Of a stretch of DNA of 64,000 nucleotides, positions 2,323 through 61,427 are shown one piece after another; the first letter of the stretch is position 1, and each line of letters opens with the position of its first letter. The stretch is from Bacteroidota bacterium. Its GTDB lineage: Bacteria; Bacteroidota; Bacteroidia; CAILMK01. The position numbers and the translations under genes are program-made. The notes below the pieces were generated by a model. It ran no database searches. It had not been told where the DNA came from and saw only the letters and a program-made list of their open reading frames with translations. The stretch spans positions 7,350 to 71,349 of the forward strand of contig DAIUCM010000001.1 in NCBI GenBank assembly GCA_036846145.1. The letters are read 5' to 3'.

Positions 2323-3621
2323 ATGCGAGCCACCTTTACCATAGAAAACACATCCGTTTTTAAACGCAAACTACTCACTTTTTTGCAGCGCGAGCCGATT
2401 TATGCTTTATACAATTCCAACGATTTTTACAAGGATAAAGATTTGTCTTCGCGGCCATATTATCATTCCCACGATCTGCTTTGTGCTTTCGGTGTAAAAC
2501 GTGAAATTATAGCCGATAATGAAGCATTTTTCGACAAACTGATATATGCGCGCAAAACGCAAAGCTGGCTTTTCGGCTTTTTGGGTTACGATTTGAAAAA
2601 CGAAGTAGAAGACTTACAATCAAACAATTACGATGGCACCGAAATGCCGGATGCGTATTTTTTTGAGCCCGAAACGGTGTTGCTGTTGAATGAAAATCAA
2701 TTAACCATCTCAACTCAAAGCATTTTTTCACCAATTGATATATGGAAATCTATTTCTGAAGCTGATGAACTTGAAATTCAAGCCAATAAAAACCCTATAA
2801 AGCTCAAAAACCGCTTAAGCAAAGCAGAATATATTTCTAATGTAGAAAAGCTAAAAAATCATATTGTAGAAGGCGATATTTATGAAGTGAATTTTTGCCA
2901 GGAGTTTTATGCTGAAGATGCCGAAATTCATCCTGAACAATTATTTGCGCGAATCAACCAGCTTTCACCTCAGCCTTTTTCTGGCTTATTGAAATTGCAA
3001 GATAAATATGTGATCTGCGCCAGCATGGAGCGTTTCCTGAAAAAAGAAGGCAACAAACTCATTTCCCAACCTATTAAAGGAACCATCCGCCGCGGAAAAA
3101 CACCTGAAGAAGATTTAGAACTTCAAAAACAACTTGCCGAAGATGAAAAAGAGCGAGCTGAAAATATTATGATCGTGGATCTGGTTCGTAATGATCTCGC
3201 GCGTAGTTCACAATCCGGTTCTGTAAAAGTGGAAGAGCTTTGCGGTGTTTATGATTTCCCTTTGGTTCACCAGATGATCTCGACCGTTACATCTACTCTT
3301 CGCCCGGAAATTCCATATATAAATGCTATTAAAAATGCTTTTCCCATGGGTTCCATGACCGGCGCACCCAAAGTTCGAACCATGCAACTTATCGAGGAAT
3401 ATGAAAAAACTAAACGTGGCTTGTATTCCGGCGCTATCGGCTATTTCGCTCCAGATGATGATTTTGATTTTAATGTTGTGATTCGCTCTTTCATATATAA
3501 TCAAGCCAAAAAATACTTAAGCCTGCATGTTGGTTCTGCCATAACTTTTGATTCGGATGCGGAAAGGGAGTTTGAGGAATGCCAGATGAAGATTAGAGGG
3601 TTATTGCGGGCGTTGGAGTAA
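2323..3621 (+). CDS. pabB: chorismate-binding enzyme, aminodeoxychorismate/anthranilate synthase component I family
   Basis: 432-aa ORF with the chorismate-utilising C-terminal signature ...AFPMGSMTGAPKVRTMQLIEEYE...RGLYSGAIGYF... Confidence 0.75.
   Translation: MRATFTIENTSVFKRKLLTFLQREPIYALYNSNDFYKDKDLSSRPYYHSHDLLCAFGVKREIIADNEAFFDKLIYARKTQSWLFGFLGYDLKNEVEDLQSNNYDGTEMPDAYFFEPETVLLLNENQLTISTQSIFSPIDIWKSISEADELEIQANKNPIKLKNRLSKAEYISNVEKLKNHIVEGDIYEVNFCQEFYAEDAEIHPEQLFARINQLSPQPFSGLLKLQDKYVICASMERFLKKEGNKLISQPIKGTIRRGKTPEEDLELQKQLAEDEKERAENIMIVDLVRNDLARSSQSGSVKVEELCGVYDFPLVHQMISTVTSTLRPEIPYINAIKNAFPMGSMTGAPKVRTMQLIEEYEKTKRGLYSGAIGYFAPDDDFDFNVVIRSFIYNQAKKYLSLHVGSAITFDSDAEREFEECQMKIRGLLRALE
3491..3621 (+). 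repeat. direct repeat copy 1 (intact 3' end of pabB) matching 7651-7781
   Basis: Manual alignment of 3491-3621 against 7651-7781 gives 111/131 identities with no indels. Weaker similarity continues ~20 nt past the stop with an indel. Confidence 0.8.
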
Positions 3622-3708
3622 ATCGTATCTCAAAAATAATTTTTACAGCGTCATGGTTTGGCGTTGTGGTCGAATATTTTTGAAAGAAATTTTCGAAACT
3701 GATTTCCT

Positions 3709-3736
3709 CATATATGTTAGACCTAAAAAATGCTTT
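3709..3736 (+). repeat. bipartite motif copy CATATATG-N13-ATGCTTT, 32 nt upstream of the GmrSD-like gene
   Basis: ctCATATATGttagacctaaaaaATGCTTTaa. Confidence 0.7.
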
Positions 3737-3767
3737 AAATTGTGAAAAATAAATTATCAAAAACTAA

Positions 3768-5537
3768 ATGGAAACCCAATCAAACAACACATTCTCAATT
3801 AAGGCAAAAACTTGCACTTTAAAACTTAAAAGCCAAGAAGATGGCGACACAATTTTAGGCAAAAATGTCAAGTACGTTATTCCAATTTACCAACGACCTT
3901 ATTCATGGAAAGAAGAACAAATCAGGAAGTTCATCTCAGATATATTTAATTCTTTCTGGGGAACTGATGGCGATTCGGAATCTGAAGCTATGTTTATCGG
4001 AACAATGCAGTTGTCTGACGCGAAAGAGATTATTGATGGACAGCAAAGACTTACAACCTTTCTATTGCTTTTAAAAGTTTTAAAACAGAATTATCCAGAT
4101 TGCAGCCAATTAAAAGATATAACTTTAGATTGGTTGAATACCAAAGTGAACAGCGGAGAACAACAACTATATTTAAATGAAGTAATTTCAAGTAATTTAA
4201 CTTTAAATGATGAAACACTGAATCCGTATTTAAAAAATGCTTATTTAATTAATGAGCTGATTGAGGAAGAAATTAAAGACGAAGAAGGAAATTACTTAAA
4301 CTTTGATATTGATAAGTTTTCTAATCATTTACTGAGCAACATCTATTTCGTTGTAATTGAAACACGTGCCGGATTATCAAAAACGCTGCAAATCTTCAAT
4401 GCAATAAATACAACAGGTCTAGATTTAAACGGCGGAGATATTTTTAAAATAAGAATGTACGAATACCTGAAAGATAAAAAAGGTAAAGATGAAACGGCTT
4501 TTGAAGATATTAGCAGGCTTTATCAAAAAATTGACCAACTGAATGCGGAACTAAAAGATAATGTAACGGACATGCACGGCATTCTAAATATTTACCAGTA
4601 CATTTTGATAGCAAAATTTAATTTGCCTACTGTACTTTATAACTATGCTACTGATGTTTTCTTTGAACACTTATTTGATAGCATATTCAACATAAACCAG
4701 TGGAATCATTTCAGCAATGTGAAAAATGTTGAGCTTTCAATTAATGAAATAGACAGAATAATAGATGCCAGATTTGATTGGGAACGAAAATGGTATGCAA
4801 AAGCTGAAGACATGGGATGCTATAAATTAATGGCGACATCTCGATACGGCAAATATTGCGATGTTTTACCAACAATATTACTTTTTGCTGATAAAAATGC
4901 CGATAGATTCTATTTCACACGACAGTTAAGTAAAGTTTATGCAATTTACAGTATTCGCTTCTTAAAAGCTGTAAATGAAATTCATCGGTTTACATACTCT
5001 CTCATTAAAGATATTCTTAACAAGCCTTTTGAGGAAATAATGCGAACTATAAACCAAAAGATCGGTAAACCTGAAGATCATAATCAAGGATGGTACGATT
5101 TAAATTGGTTTTTGTCTGAGAACCTAACAGAAAATGATAAAAGAAAGAAACTGATTTGTCGCCTATCTGCATTACTAGAGGAAAACTATCAAACTGAAGA
5201 TCAGAAAGAAATTGAGAACCTAAAAGATAAACTTTTTCATAACGACATAGATATCGAACATATCCAATCTTATCACGACAGAGATGGCAACAAAAGAGAA
5301 GATGTTTGGAATGAATGGAAAGAGGCAATAAATTCAATTGGAAACTTAATGGTTTTAGAATCAAGATTAAATCGTTCAATCAGTAATAAACCATATAATG
5401 AAAAACTGGTAAGATACCCGGAAAGCGCATATAAAATTGCACGTAAACAGACAGAATTAGCGGAATGGAATCTGAAAAAATGTCTTGAACGCAAAGAAAA
5501 AGAAACAATGAAAATTGTAGTATATCTTTTCAGTTAA
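3768..5537 (+). CDS. GmrSD-family single-chain nuclease (N-terminal DUF262/ParB-like NTPase with DGQQR motif; C-terminal DUF1524 His-Me finger), putative type IV modification-dependent restriction/defence enzyme
   Basis: 589-aa ORF. N-terminal ...IPIYQRPYSWKEEQIRKFISDI...IIDGQQRLTTFLLLLKVL... matches DUF262. C-terminal ...DIDIEHIQSYHDRDGN...WNEWKEAINSIGNLMVLESRLNRSISNKPY... matches DUF1524/HNH-like. The gene is markedly more AT-rich than flanking housekeeping genes. Confidence 0.8.
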   Translation: METQSNNTFSIKAKTCTLKLKSQEDGDTILGKNVKYVIPIYQRPYSWKEEQIRKFISDIFNSFWGTDGDSESEAMFIGTMQLSDAKEIIDGQQRLTTFLLLLKVLKQNYPDCSQLKDITLDWLNTKVNSGEQQLYLNEVISSNLTLNDETLNPYLKNAYLINELIEEEIKDEEGNYLNFDIDKFSNHLLSNIYFVVIETRAGLSKTLQIFNAINTTGLDLNGGDIFKIRMYEYLKDKKGKDETAFEDISRLYQKIDQLNAELKDNVTDMHGILNIYQYILIAKFNLPTVLYNYATDVFFEHLFDSIFNINQWNHFSNVKNVELSINEIDRIIDARFDWERKWYAKAEDMGCYKLMATSRYGKYCDVLPTILLFADKNADRFYFTRQLSKVYAIYSIRFLKAVNEIHRFTYSLIKDILNKPFEEIMRTINQKIGKPEDHNQGWYDLNWFLSENLTENDKRKKLICRLSALLEENYQTEDQKEIENLKDKLFHNDIDIEHIQSYHDRDGNKREDVWNEWKEAINSIGNLMVLESRLNRSISNKPYNEKLVRYPESAYKIARKQTELAEWNLKKCLERKEKETMKIVVYLFS

Positions 5538-5558
5538 TCAACCATACATTTCACCAAC

Positions 5559-6974
5559 TTGTCTAAACGAGGCTACATATCCCGCTATTTGCTGATTCTG
5601 AAAAAGCTAAAAGCAAAAAAGTATTGTTCTTTCGAGGAGCTGCAAAGCTATATTACCGACCAGTTGCATTACCTGCAAATGCATGACGATTCACTGCACA
5701 TTGGTTTTTCACCGAGAACTTTACAGCGGGATATTGGTGAAATCAGCAAAACTTTCGGGATTTATATTGAATATTGTCGGAAGGCAAAAGGCTATTTCAT
5801 CAGTTCTACGCAGGCAGAAAACATGAATTTCATGCGGATGGTAGAAGCTTTCGATATGTTCAACACTTTAAAAACGGTAGAAGACCTTTCACCATATGTT
5901 CATTTCGAGAAGCGGAAACCGCAAGGCACTGAACATTTTGCACCGGCGCTGGAAGCCATTCAGAAACAAAAAGTTATAAACTTCCAGTATTTTAAATTCG
6001 AGGAAGAAGAAGCGCGGGAAAGAACAGTGAAGCCATTGCTGCTGAAAGAATTCAAAAGCCGCTGGTATATTGTGGCGCAGGAAATGGGCGTTAATAAGAT
6101 AAAAACTTTCGGGCTTGACAGAATTTCCGAGCTTGTATTAACGCAGGAATCTTTTGAAAAACCACAGGATTTTAACGCGGAAGCATTTTTTGCCAATTGT
6201 TTCGGCATCATTAATCAGCCCAATGCGTACCCTGAAAATATCATTCTCTCATTCACAAAACTCCAGGGACAATACATTAAAACTTTTCCGCTACACGAAA
6301 CCCAGCAAATTTTAACGGACAATGAATTCCAAATCAAGATAAAGCTGCGCTTACATATTACGCACGATTTACTGATGGAATTACTTTCTTTCGGAGAAAA
6401 TGTGGAAGTTATATCACCTTTCAGCCTGCAGCAAGAATTGTACAATATCCACCAGAAATGCCTGCGCAAATACGATGTTTTCAGTGATGCCAATATTCAA
6501 AAATCTAAAGCTGAAAATATTTTAAAAACACTAAACAGGTTATTTTACAGCACTTTACAAATCAGCGATTACGGCAGCGAGCGATTCAGATTAAATGCCA
6601 ACCGATTCCGCGAATTGATCAACGCAGCGCAAAACTACAATATGGTTTTCAAGGAAGCGCCGCTTGAAAATGTAATGGTTGATCTGAAAAATCTACCGCA
6701 AGCAGCAATAAAACTTCTAACGCAAATCAACGAAATAAAAGCAAATCGACTGGAAGCTGCGGAAACTAACGATTTTGAATTAGCTGCCAAATTGCGCGAC
6801 CGGGAAAAACCGCTGATGCAGAAGTTATTCACCGATTATTATAGCCAAGGCTTTAAATATTTCAATGCTTCGGCTTATAAACCCAATATTATCCGGTTTT
6901 CATATACCGGCCATCCATTAGATTATTTATTGTACAAAGCCATCCAACGGCAGCCGCAATTGCAGGATTTCTAA
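5559..6974 (+). CDS. wHTH-WYL-WCX transcriptional regulator (BrxR/CapW-like) with ~160-aa C-terminal extension containing a UVR (UvrB/UvrC-type) motif
   Basis: 471-aa ORF 21 nt downstream of the nuclease gene. N-terminal wHTH: ...YCSFEELQSYITDQ...SPRTLQRDIGEI... WYL core: ...YQYFKFEEEEARERTVKPLLLKEFKSRWYIVAQEMGVNKIKTFGLDRISEL... WCX-like segment: ...LLMELLSFGENVEVISPF... C-terminal UVR motif: ...NDFELAAKLRDREKPLMQK... Confidence 0.7.
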   Translation: MSKRGYISRYLLILKKLKAKKYCSFEELQSYITDQLHYLQMHDDSLHIGFSPRTLQRDIGEISKTFGIYIEYCRKAKGYFISSTQAENMNFMRMVEAFDMFNTLKTVEDLSPYVHFEKRKPQGTEHFAPALEAIQKQKVINFQYFKFEEEEARERTVKPLLLKEFKSRWYIVAQEMGVNKIKTFGLDRISELVLTQESFEKPQDFNAEAFFANCFGIINQPNAYPENIILSFTKLQGQYIKTFPLHETQQILTDNEFQIKIKLRLHITHDLLMELLSFGENVEVISPFSLQQELYNIHQKCLRKYDVFSDANIQKSKAENILKTLNRLFYSTLQISDYGSERFRLNANRFRELINAAQNYNMVFKEAPLENVMVDLKNLPQAAIKLLTQINEIKANRLEAAETNDFELAAKLRDREKPLMQKLFTDYYSQGFKYFNASAYKPNIIRFSYTGHPLDYLLYKAIQRQPQLQDF

Positions 6975-8572: not shown

Positions 8573-9901
<1,329 letters not shown>

Positions 9902-9996
9902 TTATTAATGATTGAATGACTGAGGGATTGAATGATTGAATATTTAAGTCTTTATTTTCAATTCTCATATATCATTCGTTCGAAAAATGCTTTGAT

Positions 9997-28106: not shown

Positions 28107-28334
28107 AATAAACTATGTTCCTCTTTTTATTTTTGGAAGTGCAAAGGTAGAGTATATTTTAATACCTACCAAAATTTTTTTTATTTTTACTAAACAATTT
28201 TGTTTTTTTTGATTCGAAGGTCTTAGTTAGCTTTTTGACACTATTAACTATCAGGATTTTAAGTATTTTTACGGAAAAGCATATATGAATATATTTTCTG
28301 CCATATTTATAACTTGAAAAAAATAGTTAAAAAA

Positions 28335-33009: not shown

Positions 33010-33047
33010 AATTAATTTATGAATTTGGAAATATTATAATGAAGCTG

Positions 33048-33075
33048 CATATATGGTTTTGCTGAAAAATGCTTT
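33048..33075 (+). repeat. bipartite motif copy 39 nt upstream of rpoC
   Basis: gCATATATGgttttgctgaaaaATGCTTTtg. Confidence 0.7.
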
Positions 33076-33085
33076 TGTTCAGTTT

Positions 33086-33162
33086 GAAAGTTGTAAGGTT
33101 GCAAGGTTGTAAAGTTGCCGCGATGCGCAGAAACCTTTCAACCTTGCAACTTTTCAACTTTC
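33086..33162. repeat. imperfect 24-bp inverted repeat (hairpin) in rpoB-rpoC spacer
   Basis: Arms GAAAGTTGTAAGGTTGCAAGGTTG (33086-33109) and CAACCTTGCAACTTTTCAACTTTC (33139-33162) are separated by 29 nt. Flanked by two copies of the CATATATG...ATGCTTT motif. Confidence 0.7.
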
Positions 33163-33173
33163 TAAACCAATTC

Positions 33174-33201
33174 CATATATGCAACCTCAAAAAAATGCTT
33201 T
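33174..33201 (+). repeat. bipartite motif copy overlapping the rpoB stop codon
   Basis: cCATATATGcaacctcaaaaaaATGCTTTag. The rpoB stop (complement) is at 33200-33202. Confidence 0.7.
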
Positions 33202-36200
33202 AGTCTAGTTTAATGTCAAGTGCCAAACCTTTCAGCTCATTCAGCAATACGTTGAAGGACTCCGGAATGCCAGGCTCAGGAAGATTATCTCCCTTAACAA
33301 TGGCTTCGTAAGTCTTCGCACGGCCGATGATATCATCAGATTTGATCGTTAACATTTCCTGGAGTATGTTGGATGCACCAAATGCTTCGAGTGCCCAAAC
33401 CTCCATCTCACCAAAACGCTGGCCACCGAACTGTGATTTACCACCAAGCGGCTGCTGTGTAATTAATGAGTATGGACCTATTGAACGTGCGTGCATCTTA
33501 TCATCCACCATGTGGCTCAGCTTCAGAATGTAAATAACACCTACTGTGGTTGGCTGATCGAAACGCTCGCCGGTTAAACCATCAAACAAATAAGTTTTAC
33601 CGTTTTTAGGTAAGCCTGCCTCGCTGATATAATGATCTATTTCGCCTTCAGTAGCACCATCAAAAATAGGCGTTGCGAATTTCAAACCTAACTTTAAGCC
33701 AGCCCAGCCAAGTACAGTTTCGTATATCTGTCCAAGGTTCATACGCGATGGTACACCAAGCGGGTTCAATACGATATCTACCGGAGTTCCATCCTCAAGG
33801 AATGGCATATCTGCCGAAGGTACAATTTTGGCAACAACACCTTTGTTACCGTGGCGGCCTGCCATTTTATCACCAACTTTAAGCTTACGTTTTTCTGCAA
33901 CATAAACTTTAGCCAGCTTAAGTACGCCGGTTGGTAACTCATCACCAATGGTTAAAGCAAACTGCTCACGCTTGTAACGTGCAATTTCTTCATTTACCTT
34001 AGTTTTGTAATTCTGGATGATACCTTTTACGAGCTGGTTCTTGTCATTATCATTGGTCCAGTTGTTCGGCTCAATCTCGTTGAACTCAAGCTTCGCCAGC
34101 GTTTTCTGGTTGAATCTTGTACCTTTCGGCAACAACTCCTCGTTGAAAACATTGGTTACACTGTTTGATGTTTTGCCATCAATAACAACCAGTAATTTAT
34201 TAATTAACTGCTCTTTAATATCGCCCAGGTTTTTCCTGTGCTCAGTATCAAGCTTTGTAAACAGCGCTTTATCCTTTTCTTTAGAGCCTTTTTCCTTTTT
34301 AGCTCTTTCGAAAAGTTTTTTACTGATTACAATTCCGCCGCCGCTTGGTGGAATACGAAGCGATACATCTTTTACGTCACCAGCTTTTTCACCAAATATT
34401 GCACGGAGAAGTTTTTCTTCAGGCGAAGGCTCAGACTCACCTTTTGGTGTAATTTTACCAATAAGAATATCGCCTTCTTTAACTTCAGCACCAATACGTA
34501 TCAAGCCATTTTCATCCAGGTTACGGGTAGCTTCTTCGCTTACGTTAGGAATATCGTTTGTAAACTCCTCCATACCGCGCTTCGTATCGCGTACATCCAT
34601 TTCATATTCTGTAATATGTATAGATGTAAACCAGTCATCACGTACAGCATTCTCAGAAATTACAATCGCATCCTCAAAGTTGTAACCTTGCCACGGCATG
34701 AACGCAACAGTCATGTTACGGCCCAGTGCCAGCTCGCCTTTTTCAGTAGCGAAACCATCGCAAAGTACTTCTCCTTTTTTCACCTTCTGGCCTTTTTTAA
34801 CAATTGGCTTCAGGTTTACGCATGAGTTCTGGTTTGTTCTTCTGTATTTTACCAGATTGTAAGTACGCACATCTGTATCGAAATCGAGCAAACGAGTTGT
34901 CTCATCACGATCATAACGCACTACAATTTTAAATCCATCTACATAATCAATAACGCCATCATTTTCTGCAATAATCAGCGCTCTCGAATCTTCAGCAATA
35001 CGACCTTCGATACCTGTTCCAACAATCGGCGCCTGCGGACGCAATAAAGGAACCGCCTGGCGCTGCATGTTCGAGCCCATGAGCGCACGGTTGGCATCAT
35101 CATGCTCAAGGAAAGGAATTAAGGATGCAGCAATTGATACGATCTGGTTTGGCGAGACATCCATGTATCCAAGGTCATTCGGATCCACGATGTTGAAGTC
35201 ACCACTCTGGCGCGCTTTAACTTTATCATTAACAAAATTGCCACTCGAATCGAATTTGGCATTTGCCTGCGCAATTACCTTATCATCTTCTTCCTCTGCA
35301 CTTAAATACTCAACAGGAGCATTTAATTGAATTTTACCTTCTTCTACTCTGCGGTATGGCGTTTCTATAAAGCCCATGCTATTTATTTTAGCATAAACTG
35401 AAAGAGAAGAAATCAAACCGATATTCGGACCTTCAGGCGTTTCGATAGTACATAAACGGCCATAATGTGTATAGTGAACGTCACGAACCTCGAAACCAGC
35501 TCTTTCGCGAGAAAGACCACCAGGGCCAAGTGCAGACATTCTTCGCTTATGCGTAATCTCAGCAAGCGGATTGGTTTGATCCATGAACTGAGATAGCTGG
35601 TTTGTACCGAAGAATGAGTTTATAACGGAAGAAAGTGTTCTTGAGTTAATCAGATCCGTTGCAGTAAAAACCTCGTTATCACGTACGTTCATACGCTCAC
35701 GAATGGTACGCGCCATACGTGCAAGACCCACACCAAACTGTGCGTATAATTGCTCACCAACTGTACGTACACGCCTGTTACTCAAGTGGTCAATATCATC
35801 CACATCTGCCTTACTGTTACTTAACTCAATAAGATATTTAATGATGGAGATAATATCATCATGCGTTAATACCCTAACATCAGATGATGAGTTAAGCCCC
35901 AGCTTCTTGTTGATCCTGTAACGGCCAACTTCACCCAGGTCATAACGTTTGTCTGAGAAGAACAAACGCTCGATAATGCCACGCGCAGTTTCTTCATCAG
36001 GTGGATCTGCGTTACGCAACTGGCGATAGATGTGCTCCAATGCCTCTTTGCCAGAGTTCGATGGATCCTTTTGTAAAGTATTATAAATGATCTCAAAGTC
36101 ATTCGCATCCATATCTTCACGATGAAGAATAATGCTTTTAACATTGGCATTTATTATTAAATCAATATGATCATCTCTTAAAATCGTATCACGCTCAAGT

Positions 36201-37009: not shown

Positions 37010-37051
37010 GGAAGTATTTTTTAATTAAACAATATATGGAAGTATATAAAT

Positions 37052-37093
37052 GGGAATAGACCTGGTCCCAATTACTTTGGGATCAGGTCTTCC
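37052..37093 (-). promoter_or_regulatory. rplL-rpoB intergenic hairpin (putative attenuator/partial terminator)
   Basis: Imperfect ~15-bp stem GGAATAGACCTGGTCCC-aattacttt-GGGATCAGGTCTTCC downstream of rplL and upstream of rpoB. This is the classic position of the L10 operon attenuator. Confidence 0.45.
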
Positions 37094-37120
37094 TATGCTG
37101 CTGGGCTGTTAAAATGCAGA

Positions 37121-39241: not shown

Positions 39242-39328
39242 TTTTGTTTTTAGTTTGACAACTGCCTGCCTACTGTAAAGTATTTTTTAACAATACTATA
39301 TATGTTAAGCGTGCAGCAATTTATATAA

Positions 39329-42448: not shown

Positions 42449-43336
42449 TTAACCCTTGGGATGGGCTTGTTTGTAAATAGTTTTTAATCTTTCTATTGAG
42501 TTGTGGGTATAAATTTGCGTGGCGGCAAGGTTAGCATGGCCGAGCAATTCTTTAATAGCATTAATTTCCGCGCCATTGTTCAGCAGGTGCGTAGCGTATG
42601 TATGGCGCAAAACATGCGGACTGTTTTTTTGAATGCTGCTTACCATGCTTATGTATTTTTTTACTGCACGGTTCACAAACATGGGGTAAAGCGGCTGACC
42701 TTTATCGGTTACCAGTAATGTTGTACTGGTAAATCCATAAAGCATTTTTTGCTGCAGGTATATATGAATTGCCTCGGCAGTTTGCGCGGGAACAGGTATA
42801 ATGCGCTCTTTATTACGCTTTCCTGTAACTTTAATACATGATTCGGCCAGATTTATATTTTTCTCTTGCAATGATATTAGCTCGCTCAAACGCATCCCCG
42901 TACCATATAGCAGCTCGAGGATAAGCTTATCCCGTTGACCATAAAAATCGTCGGGGAATTCTATATATTCATTATCGAATAAATGGTTTGTTTCTGTTTC
43001 TGTAAGCCATTGAAAAAGCCTTTTCTCTGTTTTAACACTTTGTATTGCAGCCATTGGGTTTATTGCTACAGCTCCGCTCCTGAGCAGGAACTTATAAAAA
43101 GTATTAAGCGCAACCAGTTTACGGTTAATGCTGCGGGCGCTGAGCTTTTGCTGGGTTTGCTCGTAGATCCACGATTTTACCATAGCAGGTTTTACAACCG
43201 ATTCATCCGCTACGGAGTACTGAACTTGCAGAAATGCAAAAAACTGCGCTACGTCATTAACATAGGCAGTTCCTGTATGCTTCGAATATCTTCTCTCGTT
43301 TTGTAGGTAATCTGCAAATTGCGCAAGCTTACTCAT
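42449..43336 (-). CDS. tyrosine-type site-specific recombinase, XerC/XerD family
   Basis: 295 aa with catalytic ...RHTYATHLLNNGAEINAIKELLGHANLAATQIYTH... Sits between rpsU and hpf, a conserved chromosomal arrangement in Bacteroidota, so it is more likely a chromosome-dimer-resolution Xer than a mobile-element integrase. Confidence 0.8.
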   Translation of the reverse strand: MSKLAQFADYLQNERRYSKHTGTAYVNDVAQFFAFLQVQYSVADESVVKPAMVKSWIYEQTQQKLSARSINRKLVALNTFYKFLLRSGAVAINPMAAIQSVKTEKRLFQWLTETETNHLFDNEYIEFPDDFYGQRDKLILELLYGTGMRLSELISLQEKNINLAESCIKVTGKRNKERIIPVPAQTAEAIHIYLQQKMLYGFTSTTLLVTDKGQPLYPMFVNRAVKKYISMVSSIQKNSPHVLRHTYATHLLNNGAEINAIKELLGHANLAATQIYTHNSIERLKTIYKQAHPKG

Positions 43337-47125: not shown

Positions 47126-47683
47126 ATGGTTTTGGGTAAGTGGCCTTTAAGGCTTGTATTAATTGGATTGGCATTTACGTTACAGGCGTATACCGTTGGA
47201 AATGAGAAACAACAGAAAATAAAATTCAACGAGCTGGCCTGGCGTTACATTTGCAAAGAGGCTACCGCAAAAGAAAAACTTATTTTTATTTACGTTGGCG
47301 CGGATTATTGCAGCGCCTGCCGGCGGATGGAAACCAGTTTGCGCAGCCCTAAACTTGGCGGTTTTTACAACAATGCGTTTGTAAATGTACGTTTTGATGC
47401 AAAAGATTTCATTCAGCACCAGCGGGCAACAAGCTGGGGCGTTACAAGCGTGCCAACCATGGTTTATTTAAATGAAAAGAGAGAGGTAGTACACATGGTT
47501 ACAGGCTTTCGTGATGCGGAAGGCATGATGCGTGAAGCCCAGATAGCGATGGAAAAAAGCGGCAAATCCATTCATATACCTATAGAAATTGCTGATGAAG
47601 TTGAGGAAATTGAAACCGGCAACCCTTGTGATGAAGACAAAACTGAAATGAAACCTGTAGAAACGCCCGAAGAAACCAAATAG
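47126..47683 (+). CDS. secreted thioredoxin-fold protein, paralog 3 (intact CSAC motif) with acidic C-terminal tail
   Basis: 185 aa, ...KLIFIYVGADYCSACRRMETSL...FYNNAFVNVRFDAKDFIQHQRATSWGVTSVPTMVYLN... plus ...IEIADEVEEIETGNPCDEDKTEMKPVETPEETK. Confidence 0.7.
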   Translation: MVLGKWPLRLVLIGLAFTLQAYTVGNEKQQKIKFNELAWRYICKEATAKEKLIFIYVGADYCSACRRMETSLRSPKLGGFYNNAFVNVRFDAKDFIQHQRATSWGVTSVPTMVYLNEKREVVHMVTGFRDAEGMMREAQIAMEKSGKSIHIPIEIADEVEEIETGNPCDEDKTEMKPVETPEETK

Positions 47684-47685
47684 CG

Positions 47686-47755
47686 CATATATATTATAGC
47701 CTTAAAATGCTTTGTGTATTAAAACGCAAAGCATTTTTTGGTTAAGGCATATATG
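47686..47755. repeat. two motif copies in inverted orientation (47686-47713 forward, 47728-47755 reverse)
   Basis: gCATATATAttatagccttaaaATGCTTTgtgtattaaaacgcAAAGCATtttttggttaaggCATATATGt. Confidence 0.75.
47704..47739 (+). terminator. intrinsic terminator after thioredoxin-fold paralog 3, built from two inverted copies of the ATGCTTT half-motif
   Basis: AAAATGCTTTGTGT-attaaa-ACGCAAAGCATTTT then TTGG. The 14-bp stem has one G.U, and the T-run is partly within and partly after the stem. Confidence 0.6.
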
Positions 47756-50004: not shown

Positions 50005-50202
50005 GTTATAGTGAGGTTTGTTTGTATATGCGGATTAATTATTGCGAAAATAAACTTTTTCCATATTTTAATATCATAAAATTACATCTTTAGTAATAAT
50101 AATCCTGGTTGCCTATATATTGGGTTTCTGAAAAATGCTTTGGCCACTGCATTAATGGTTTGTATATCGAAAATTAAACACGTGCAAATCTGTTATAAAG
50201 AC

Positions 50203-50290
50203 ACGCGTAAAAATGCGCGCCAGCGGAGTTACTGTATTTAGATTTTGCTGTACTTATGCTGAGTTGAGCTGGCGCGCGTTTTTACGCGTG
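50203..50290. repeat. GC-rich 22-bp inverted repeat with 43-nt loop in divergent intergenic region
   Basis: Arm 1 ACGCGTAAAAATGCGCGCCAGC (50203-50224) pairs with arm 2 GCTGGCGCGCGTTTTTACGCGTG (50268-50290) with a single T/C mismatch. Confidence 0.75.
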
Positions 50291-57551: not shown

Positions 57552-58076
57552 TTAAAACAAATATAAAGATAAAAGTTTCTGTTTGAAATTGTGGTTTCCA
57601 TATGTGGTTTGGCTGGAAAATGCTTTCGTAATTTGTTGGCATTTGCTGGCGCGAGCTTGTAGCTCGTGCATCGTTCTATTGTAGTTGGCACGAGCTACAA
57701 GCTCGCGCCAGCGATTGGGCTCATTTAACCTAAGCGATCTTTTATTAATTTTAAATGTATCAAAGGCCAGGTTCAGAGTTAAATCCAATTTTTTAGCCCT
57801 ATTAATTATGCTATCAACTTGTATTGAATTACTTTTCAAAAAGGTTAAATTATTTCTTATTTCTCCATATAGTATTTTGTAAATCTTTTGGTTTTCTACT
57901 GGCATGAAGTACTCCGGATGTGAAAAATACTCTAATTGGCTGGTATTCAAGTTTTGTGTATATTCCGAAGAAATGCTGTCTGCAATTAGATTGAAATTAT
58001 TTCCGGAATTAGGATTTTTACAGCTCAGATTTGTAATTAGCACCAACAACAAGAATATTGAGAAAGATACTTTCAT
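57552..58076 (-). CDS. hypothetical lipoprotein whose 3' end runs through a repeat element
   Basis: Taken from the internal ATG (complement 58074-58076): MKVSFSIFLLLVLITNLSC-KNPN lipobox. The track's 58160 start is a TTG. The last ~55 codons are encoded by a CATATGTG...ATGCTTT motif copy plus a perfect 25-bp inverted repeat. Confidence 0.5.
   Translation of the reverse strand: MKVSFSIFLLLVLITNLSCKNPNSGNNFNLIADSISSEYTQNLNTSQLEYFSHPEYFMPVENQKIYKILYGEIRNNLTFLKSNSIQVDSIINRAKKLDLTLNLAFDTFKINKRSLRLNEPNRWRELVARANYNRTMHELQARASKCQQITKAFSSQTTYGNHNFKQKLLSLYLF
57645..57712. repeat. perfect 25-bp GC-rich inverted repeat with 18-nt loop
   Basis: GCTGGCGCGAGCTTGTAGCTCGTGC (57645-57669) / GCACGAGCTACAAGCTCGCGCCAGC (57688-57712). 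Exact reverse complements. Confidence 0.85.
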
Positions 58077-60159: not shown

Positions 60160-60332
60160 TTTTATAAAAGTTTTTAGGTTTTAAATTTATTTACTCCGGC
60201 TTACTCTAAAGTTGTGCCAAAGGATTTTTAAGACATTTTTGCAAAGGATTGTGGAACTTTTGTCAGGTGGAACAATGAAAGAATGTAAGATTGAATGAAT
60301 GTAAGAATAAAATGACTGAATTTGCTTTCGCG

Positions 60333-60360
60333 CATATAAAGGGCGGCTTGAAAATGCTTT
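60333..60360 (+). repeat. bipartite motif copy upstream of groES
   Basis: gCATATAAAgggcggcttgaaaATGCTTTtt. Confidence 0.6.
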
Positions 60361-61383: not shown

Positions 61384-61427
61384 AGCATTTTTCGGCATTG
61401 CCATATATGCACAAAATAAATAAATAT

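Follow-up and report, generated by a model that had tools for sequence, protein, structure and literature searches.

In Escherichia coli, the spacer between rplL and rpoB carries an attenuator and an RNase III site, which uncouple the expression of ribosomal proteins from that of the RNA polymerase subunits. Here, we describe a structured intercistronic element in the same operon family, located in the spacer between rpoB and rpoC of a Bacteroidota bacterium (assembly GCA_036846145.1). The locus was analysed within a 64,000-nucleotide stretch of contig DAIUCM010000001.1 (positions 7,350 to 71,349 of the forward strand), hereafter the window. The E. coli element resides in a different spacer, is not homologous and terminates transcription, whereas the rpoB–rpoC element has no U-tract. 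The rpoB–rpoC spacer consists of two layers: a stem-loop found across the genus, formed by two tandem copies of a bipartite DNA word, and a species-specific palindrome of 91 nucleotides (nt) located in its loop.

Iterated DNA words of several bacterial lineages provide one comparison. The uptake signal sequence (USS) of Haemophilus, the DNA uptake sequence (DUS) of Neisseria and the highly iterated palindrome HIP1 of cyanobacteria are lineage-specific, occur about once per 1–2 kb in both orientations and in coding as well as non-coding DNA, and are made by substitution. Pairs of uptake sequences also double as terminators in Neisseria and Haemophilus. The word that flanks the palindrome resembles them in density, orientation and spread over coding and non-coding DNA, and a head-to-head pair of copies at 47686–47755, just after a thioredoxin-like gene (47126–47683), forms a hairpin followed by a T-run that resembles such terminators. 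The word differs in being bipartite, with a free 10-nt spacer, and in being far more intergenic (23 of 32 sites fall in the non-coding 16% of the window). A literature search for a DNA uptake signal in Bacteroidota found no paper.

The palindrome invites comparison with the repetitive extragenic palindromes (REPs) and bacterial interspersed mosaic elements (BIMEs) of enterobacteria and pseudomonads. These are likewise imperfect extragenic palindromes that stand just after stop codons in operons or between convergent genes, form stable transcribed hairpins without a U-tract, and vary in presence between relatives. They act as barriers to exonucleases and, if within 15 nt of a stop codon, as obstacles that stall ribosomes (PMC2817692; summarised in PMC12306157). 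They differ in having a fixed consensus of 20–40 nt, whereas the palindrome described here is made of arrays of an 8-nt unit. Furthermore, they have a GTAG head and an associated transposase (REP-associated tyrosine transposase, RAYT); no GTAG head is present at the base of the palindrome arms, the window proteins that were scanned (64 kb) include no RAYT or Y1 transposase, and the palindrome occurs in the window as a single copy.

Tandem intergenic units of 7–8 nt, some of them inverted and capable of forming stem-loops, have been described as GGGAATC in Xanthomonas, GGGGAYT in Nostoc and as heptamers in Calothrix; such arrays are common and vary in both length and sequence from one close relative to the next (PMC4692102). 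In the rpoB–rpoC spacer the unit is a different one and does not form G-quadruplexes, the inverted arrangement is the rule, and the array sits in the loop of an older, conserved stem. Finally, stem-loops in the cip-cel operon set mRNA processing and subunit stoichiometry (PMC10311766).

The rpoB–rpoC spacer has two layers

Both genes lie on the minus strand, and the spacer of 190 nt between the rpoB stop codon TAA (33202–33200) and the rpoC start codon ATG (33009–33007, by ORF call and alignment) had been correctly delimited in an earlier note made on this DNA from its sequence. Rpb2 and Rpb1 Pfam domains are present in the orthologous open reading frames (ORFs) of relatives. Motif copy 1, AAAGCATTTTT-TTGAGGTTGC-ATATATG, occupies positions 33201–33174, so placed that the last two bases of the stop codon are its first two A's. 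Motif copy 2, AAAGCATTTTT-CAGCAAAACC-ATATATG, occupies 33075–33048 and is followed by an A/U-rich leader of 38 nt up to rpoC; its segment 33010–33040 is near-invariant in four species and unpaired in every fold. Exact matches to the motif number five, against none expected. The two direct copies had been noticed before and both are real; they are neither private to the spacer (the window holds 39 copies), nor part of the 91-nt segment, nor a target duplication.

Close relatives were sought through an RpoC protein search and cluster look-ups, as a scan of genome contigs gave no relative above 83%. Three congeners were obtained: L082, a metagenome-assembled genome (MAG) labelled Pedobacter sp. 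(GCA_004210945.1), L249, a MAG labelled Bacteroidia (GCA_054315415.1), and L250 (ENA ERZ25038114). Their rpoC genes are 85–87% identical to that of the window at the nucleotide level and 96–97% at the protein level. Their spacers measure only 101–103 nt, contain both motif copies, with the 10-nt spacer of copy 1 being variable, and show the identical overlap of stop codon and motif in the alignment. They align end to end with the window spacer save for positions 33170–33080, which are exactly the folded hairpin.

As mRNA, the entire window spacer has a folding energy of −71 kcal/mol (z −9.5; none of 200 shuffles matches it), and the element takes the form of a rod about 150 nt long, with six G-U pairs in the structure; the antisense strand is less stable, at −60.8 kcal/mol. 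Folding of this minus-strand transcript also revealed a 17-bp outer stem that the earlier note had missed. In the minimum free energy structure, its 5′ strand UGAGGUUGCAUAUAUGG (33173–33189) pairs with the 3′ strand CCAUAUAUGCAGCUUCA (33041–33057), and the stem-loop starts 10 nt past the rpoB stop. Thus, the two motif copies and their flanks pair with each other, which they can do because CATATATG is a palindrome.

The same two-level fold is common to all four species, so that the genus possesses a conserved intercistronic stem-loop formed by two tandem copies of the word. In the outer stem, the end of copy 1 (its spacer plus CATATATGG) pairs with CCATATATG of copy 2 and the next 7–8 nt, giving a length of 15–17 bp made up of the palindromic CATATATG cores and 7–9 complementary flanking bases. 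A small inner hairpin encloses the AAAGCAUUUUU of motif copy 2 in the relatives. Compensatory changes are seen in the outer stem (GATCTG/CAGATC in L250, GAGGTTG/CAGCTTC in the window, GAAGATG/CAGTTTC in L249) as well as in the inner hairpin (GCUGAA/UUCAGC, GCCAAA/UUUGGC, CGAAA/UUUCG). Across the 24 stem pairs of the four-way alignment, 87.5% of the cells are paired, as opposed to 27–50% when the 3′ partner is slid by one to three columns; five pairs have changed on both sides, a number reached by two of 500 shuffles. The spacers of the relatives fold with z values of −7.8, −5.0 and −3.3 on the mRNA strand, compared to −6.2, −3.7 and −2.4 on the other strand. Covariation among four sequences is suggestive evidence for a conserved stem. 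The earlier proposal of a structured RNA element thus stands for this smaller stem-loop, while the suggestion that it is an attenuator has become unlikely, with neither a T-run nor a match to a promoter that could restart rpoC.

The species-specific layer is the 91-nt periodic palindrome (33170–33080). Its arms (33083–33122 and 33126–33165) are 40 nt long, 83% complementary and separated by 3 nt around a centre at 33124. The 24-bp inverted repeat reported earlier (33086–33109 and 33139–33162) is real and shares this centre, whereas the 29-nt segment described as lying between its arms is itself mostly paired. Both arms consist of repeated 8-nt units (GTTGNAAG and its complement), a pattern with six matches against 0.03 expected; in the transcript they read (GUUGNAAG)n in the 5′ arm and (CUUNCAAC)n in the 3′ arm, with the loop AUC, and they can also pair in a second register, offset by 8 nt. 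As mRNA, the palindrome alone folds at −46.1 kcal/mol (z −8.9) with 40 base pairs, four of which are G-U.

To judge from the alignment, the 91-nt hairpin is a dispensable indel in the loop of the genus-conserved stem-loop. An inserted repeat unit had been considered in the earlier note and is the right description for the large hairpin, in that the three congeners are without exactly those 91 nt. Nevertheless, with the window species being the most divergent of the four, an insertion in its own lineage and a deletion in the common ancestor of the three congeners are equally parsimonious. Absence in close relatives had been put forward as the finding that would count against a function; the hairpin is indeed missing at 96–97% RpoC identity and, being dispensable at the species level, is not a conserved regulator of the ratio of beta to beta′, while both motif copies are kept. 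A target-site duplication around the segment was rejected as unconvincing, the sole candidate being GAA at both junctions, and apart from the arms themselves no clear terminal inverted repeats were seen there.

Two short ORFs across the spacer (33017–33190, minus strand, and 33069–33203, plus strand) were discarded, as they depend on the segment missing in the relatives, and so was a 12-codon frame from the ATG of motif copy 2, which changes frame in L082.

Extragenic hairpins in other genomes

At least 120 stretches with the octamer array were recovered from metagenomes, on contigs of 32–69% G+C. The arrays that form hairpins lie at a distance of 0–30 nt from a stop codon, in many cases in the gap between two convergent genes with a stop codon on either side; examples among the metagenome loci L088–L167 are L149:2206–2273, L156:2614–2675 and L096:5567–5688. 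The G-rich arm comes first at all 21 loci and the C-rich arm at none, a polarity that is not explained by chance or simple slippage. Two or more separate octamer arrays are present on seven of 80 metagenomic contigs. Palindromes of GTTGNAAG are common in environmental genomes, where they lie close to stop codons, and by its sequence the 91-nt palindrome belongs with these periodic extragenic elements, a widespread class found directly next to stop codons in many bacteria. As an extragenic palindrome within an operon spacer, the element between rpoB and rpoC is of an ordinary kind; what is unusual is its composite form.

Large hairpins in this particular spacer are not restricted to the window. 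The 75 rpoB–rpoC spacers compared, drawn from Bacteroidota and allied phyla, comprise 25 of less than 40 nt and 50 of 40–400 nt, and half of the latter (25) fold at z ≤ −3. For this group, the earlier view that a large hairpin is unusual at this position is thereby contradicted, since 25 of the 75 spacers are significantly stable. Their hairpins usually begin 0–11 nt past the rpoB stop and are mutually unrelated in sequence. Arms with a 7-nt period were found in Mucilaginibacter sp. and in MAGs of Cyclobacteriaceae, Sphingobacteriales, Chitinophagaceae and Pyrinomonadaceae, and a similar heptamer period was recognised by eye in Flavobacterium L035 and the Daejeonella MAG L004. Nearer to the window, unrelated hairpins are present in the 62-nt spacer of L085 (88% RpoC identity) and in the 134-nt spacer of L087 (85%). 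In Flavobacterium, three species each have a hairpin of their own at the same spot after the stop, unrelated to the other two and beside a conserved core. The rpoB–rpoC spacer thus tolerates, and across Bacteroidota repeatedly gains, large unrelated hairpins right after the rpoB stop. Such recurrence suggests that what is shared is the need for an RNA barrier or a processing point at this position, rather than a conserved regulator.

The core of the Flavobacterium spacers (275–301 nt; L035:2157–2458, L038:2172–2458, L043:2177–2452) is itself of note. It comprises about 110 nt, AAGATTTATACCCGTAACCCGTTCCGATTTTTTAT...TTTGAAGTTTAGAGAAGTAACCCGAGGTAG, with apparently covarying helices and without an Rfam family, and is flanked by the species-specific hairpins.

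A 28-bp word repeated across the window

The motif from which the conserved stem is built recurs throughout the window. The sequence AAGCATTTTT occurs 21 times against 1.3 expected, and AGCATTTT-N11-ATATATG, with at most two mismatches, 39 times against 0.59 expected, or about once per 1.6 kb. The full word is AAAGCATTTTT-N10-ATATATG (28 bp), with a variant AAAGTATTTTT; examples are located at 2523–2548, 9869–9894, 28262–28287, 37013–37038, 39279–39304, 42741–42766 and 61384–61409. The sequence logo of the 32 best sites, defined by at most one mismatch, reads aAAGCATTTTT-nnGCAAnnnn-ATATATG, with invariant spacing between the blocks and a largely free 10-nt spacer. An A precedes AGC at all 32 sites, even though this position lies outside the search pattern.

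These 32 sites are split between the plus strand (14) and the minus strand (18). Crude ORF calls place 23 of them between genes and nine inside ORFs, including four in a genuine gene for a chorismate-binding enzyme and one each in the rplN and xerD homologues. The intergenic copies show no common direction, 11 pointing at the downstream gene and 12 not, three of the latter lying between convergent genes. Six of the eight copies in the minus-strand ribosomal protein operons are antisense. In all four species, motif copy 2 stands 38–40 nt upstream of the rpoC ATG.

The word is retained within the genus. Over the 24 kb shared with L249 and L250, a region of ribosomal protein genes, six of seven window sites are matched in both, two of them intragenic, and the word is also kept at matching sites in L082. 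Pairwise differences across matched sites amount to 1.9% in the blocks and 34% in the spacer, a contrast that is biased by the sites having been found via their blocks. By our estimate from the divergence seen in the spacer, a neutral block of 15 nt would rarely persist in two species at six of seven sites, and the word is under clear purifying selection within the genus. It was not found in any of L083, L084, L085, L086 and L087. In the L084 ortholog of xerD, another sequence of the same length stands in place of the word, which therefore arose there by substitution rather than insertion. The spacer between DUF3467 and rpsL has a perfect copy in one species and a decayed copy in another.

Beyond the genus, no copy with at most one mismatch was present in 465 kb of 80 other Bacteroidota rpoBC loci or in 482 kb of metagenomic contigs. 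A phage origin was considered and is unsupported: 2.9 million viral contigs gave 41 single matches, with never more than one per contig, which is chance level by a rough estimate. Nothing in the libraries or literature searched explains the word.

Nor does the word, in either orientation, fit the housekeeping promoter of Bacteroidota (−33 TTTG / −7 TAnnTTTG), and it was rejected as such. The normal promoter is in use in the same genome, as rpsL is preceded by TTTG-N20-TAccTTTG and the tRNA operon by TAacTTTG, and hairpins followed by T8 serve as terminators elsewhere. Because these canonical boxes and hairpin-plus-T-run terminators are used instead, the word is not the standard promoter, nor is it a terminator.

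Over-representation on both strands, presence in coding as well as non-coding DNA and an origin by substitution are all properties of DNA uptake sequences, and the word has each of them; no competence genes turned up among the proteins scanned in the 64-kb window. In this uncultured, Sphingobacteriales-like genus, the 28-bp word is as dense as a DNA uptake sequence. The word, which is retained at corresponding places even within rplN and xerD, might be an undescribed, genus-specific and hyper-iterated bipartite signal, either uptake-like or a site for an abundant DNA-binding protein or sigma factor, with the rpoB–rpoC stem-loop built from two such signals. We regard this as something of a long shot; if true, it would be the first such word system in Bacteroidota.

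Possible roles of the spacer structure and further elements of the window

The explanation that we favour, with confidence that is evenly balanced, is that the spacer structure exerts its effect as RNA, forming a REP-like barrier or a processing site in the rplKAJL–rpoBC transcript, with the 91-nt segment being dispensable. The stem-loop would block 3′-to-5′ exonucleases or, alternatively, serve as a processing site for a double-strand-specific, RNase III-type enzyme; in either case, the rpoB and rpoC segments of the mRNA would decay independently of each other. Ribosomes that terminate at the rpoB stop would also meet the base of the stem and have to melt it, and the 91-nt segment would at most strengthen a pre-existing element. 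The structure resembles a REP in being an imperfect extragenic palindrome near the 3′ end of a gene, with 40-bp arms and a stem 10 nt past the stop, and the 40-bp and 17-bp helices of the predicted fold have the geometry of RNase III substrates.

Several observations weigh against this explanation. Spacers of 18–21 nt without structure are found in L083 (90% RpoC identity), L084 (89%) and L086 (87%), and expression of rpoBC does not need a spacer structure, because these relatives manage without one. Furthermore, the double changes in the stem come mostly from one lineage (L250) and, with four sequences, may reflect few events; the bias of wobble pairs towards the sense strand is weak in the big hairpin (four G-U against one A-C); and the stem is built of a DNA word that may itself function at the level of DNA, so that the pairing could simply result from two such sites lying side by side. 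Each functional step of the RNA-level mechanism is one that we infer.

The last point leads to the main rival, which we consider unlikely, yet deserving of real weight: the two word copies themselves could be the functional units, at the level of DNA, as sites for an abundant genus-specific protein, promoters for an alternative sigma factor or uptake-like sequences, with stem and palindrome being incidental. The great excess of the word over expectation, its fixed block spacing around a variable spacer and its retention at six of seven sites in the 24-kb ribosomal protein region, two of them within genes, are consistent with this. So is the site in xerD, where the word was made by substitution; it is the only intragenic site that has an ortholog beyond the genus. 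Read as AAAGCA-N16-TATATG, the word has, in our own reading, the geometry of a promoter of the sigma-70 family, and the near-constant distance of copy 2 from the rpoC ATG in four species would suit such a role. A promoter is, however, difficult to reconcile with the even orientation of the intergenic copies (11 against 12, three between convergent genes), with the antisense direction of most copies in the ribosomal protein operons, or with the use of the canonical TAnnTTTG box by rpsL and the tRNA operon. Moreover, complementarity in the stem runs 7–9 bp past the core, into the spacer of copy 1 and downstream of copy 2, and changes in a compensatory manner, neither of which would be predicted for independent protein sites. 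Such compensatory changes outside the conserved blocks argue against the DNA-level reading.

A role in transcription termination, by which the hairpin would stop some polymerases after rpoB and yield unequal amounts of beta and beta′, appears very unlikely. The hairpin is very stable and directly downstream of rpoB, the phylum repeatedly shows unrelated hairpins in this position, and E. coli has its attenuator in the neighbouring rplL–rpoB spacer. However, a terminator scan rejected a canonical intrinsic terminator in the spacer, finding no T-run after either stem, where the sequences are CUGAACAAAAG... and AUUAUAAUAUUUCC, although the same genome employs hairpin-plus-T8 terminators. No promoter that would restore rpoC expression is visible either: TTG-N18–21-TAnnTTTG has no match in the spacer and a sigma-70 scan of it gave nothing, the strict Bacteroidota pattern being too rare for a general test (six matches in the window, 4.6 in shuffles). 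The spacer structure is thus probably not a terminator, a role made unlikely by the lack of both a T-run and a recognisable rpoC promoter. In addition, beta and beta′ are needed in equal amounts, and the congeners are without the big hairpin.

Alternatively, the palindrome could be functionless, a product of slippage or template switching, or a mobile insertion akin to a miniature inverted-repeat transposable element, in a tolerant loop. Its presence in just one of the four congeners would agree with this, as would its simple 8-nt repeats, which are of the kind made by polymerase slippage (PMC4692102), the occurrence of uninverted 8-nt arrays elsewhere in the window (9907–9941 and 60274–60312), and the metagenomic contigs with several such arrays. 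This possibility, which we judge improbable, is largely compatible with the favoured RNA-level explanation, in which the segment is also dispensable. By itself, it leaves unexplained why palindromes abut so closely on stop codons and why the G-rich arm comes first (21 loci against none), and neither clear terminal inverted repeats nor a convincing target duplication were seen that would speak for the mobile version.

With Rfam 15 at permissive thresholds, the spacer gave only sub-threshold and spurious matches to microRNA precursors, as any long hairpin would; at the gathering threshold, the window and 16 related loci yielded nothing but tRNAs.

The window contains further repeats and hairpins. 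The two uninverted period-8 arrays each adjoin a word copy and have no inverted partner: CAATCATT is repeated 4.4 times at 9907–9941 in the carA–eno spacer (9869–9991), and AATGAAAG 4.9 times on the plus strand at 60274–60312, within the stretch 60274–60358 upstream of groES. On the transcribed strand both are C-rich and nearly free of G, and look like Rho-loading sites. All three period-8 arrays of the window (TRF score at least 40) lie within about 30 nt of a word copy. Two long palindromes at 57640–57717 (30-nt arms, 93%) and 50202–50290 (23-nt arms, 96%) both contain GCTGGCGCG, are G+C-rich in a window of 39% G+C, and are each 15–62 nt from a word copy; they may represent a second, REP-like repeat family. 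Upstream of rpoB, the rplL–rpoB spacer contains a hairpin, GGAAGACCTGATCCCAAAGTAATTGGGACCAGGTCT, at 37045–37095, and the word copy at 37013–37038, which is reversed and present in the window only, abuts the rpoB start. Finally, of the four word copies in the chorismate-binding-enzyme gene (2323–6974 region), two are sense and two antisense; this gene adjoins genes for a GmrSD-type restriction endonuclease and a regulator with WYL/WCX domains, which together may form a small defence island.

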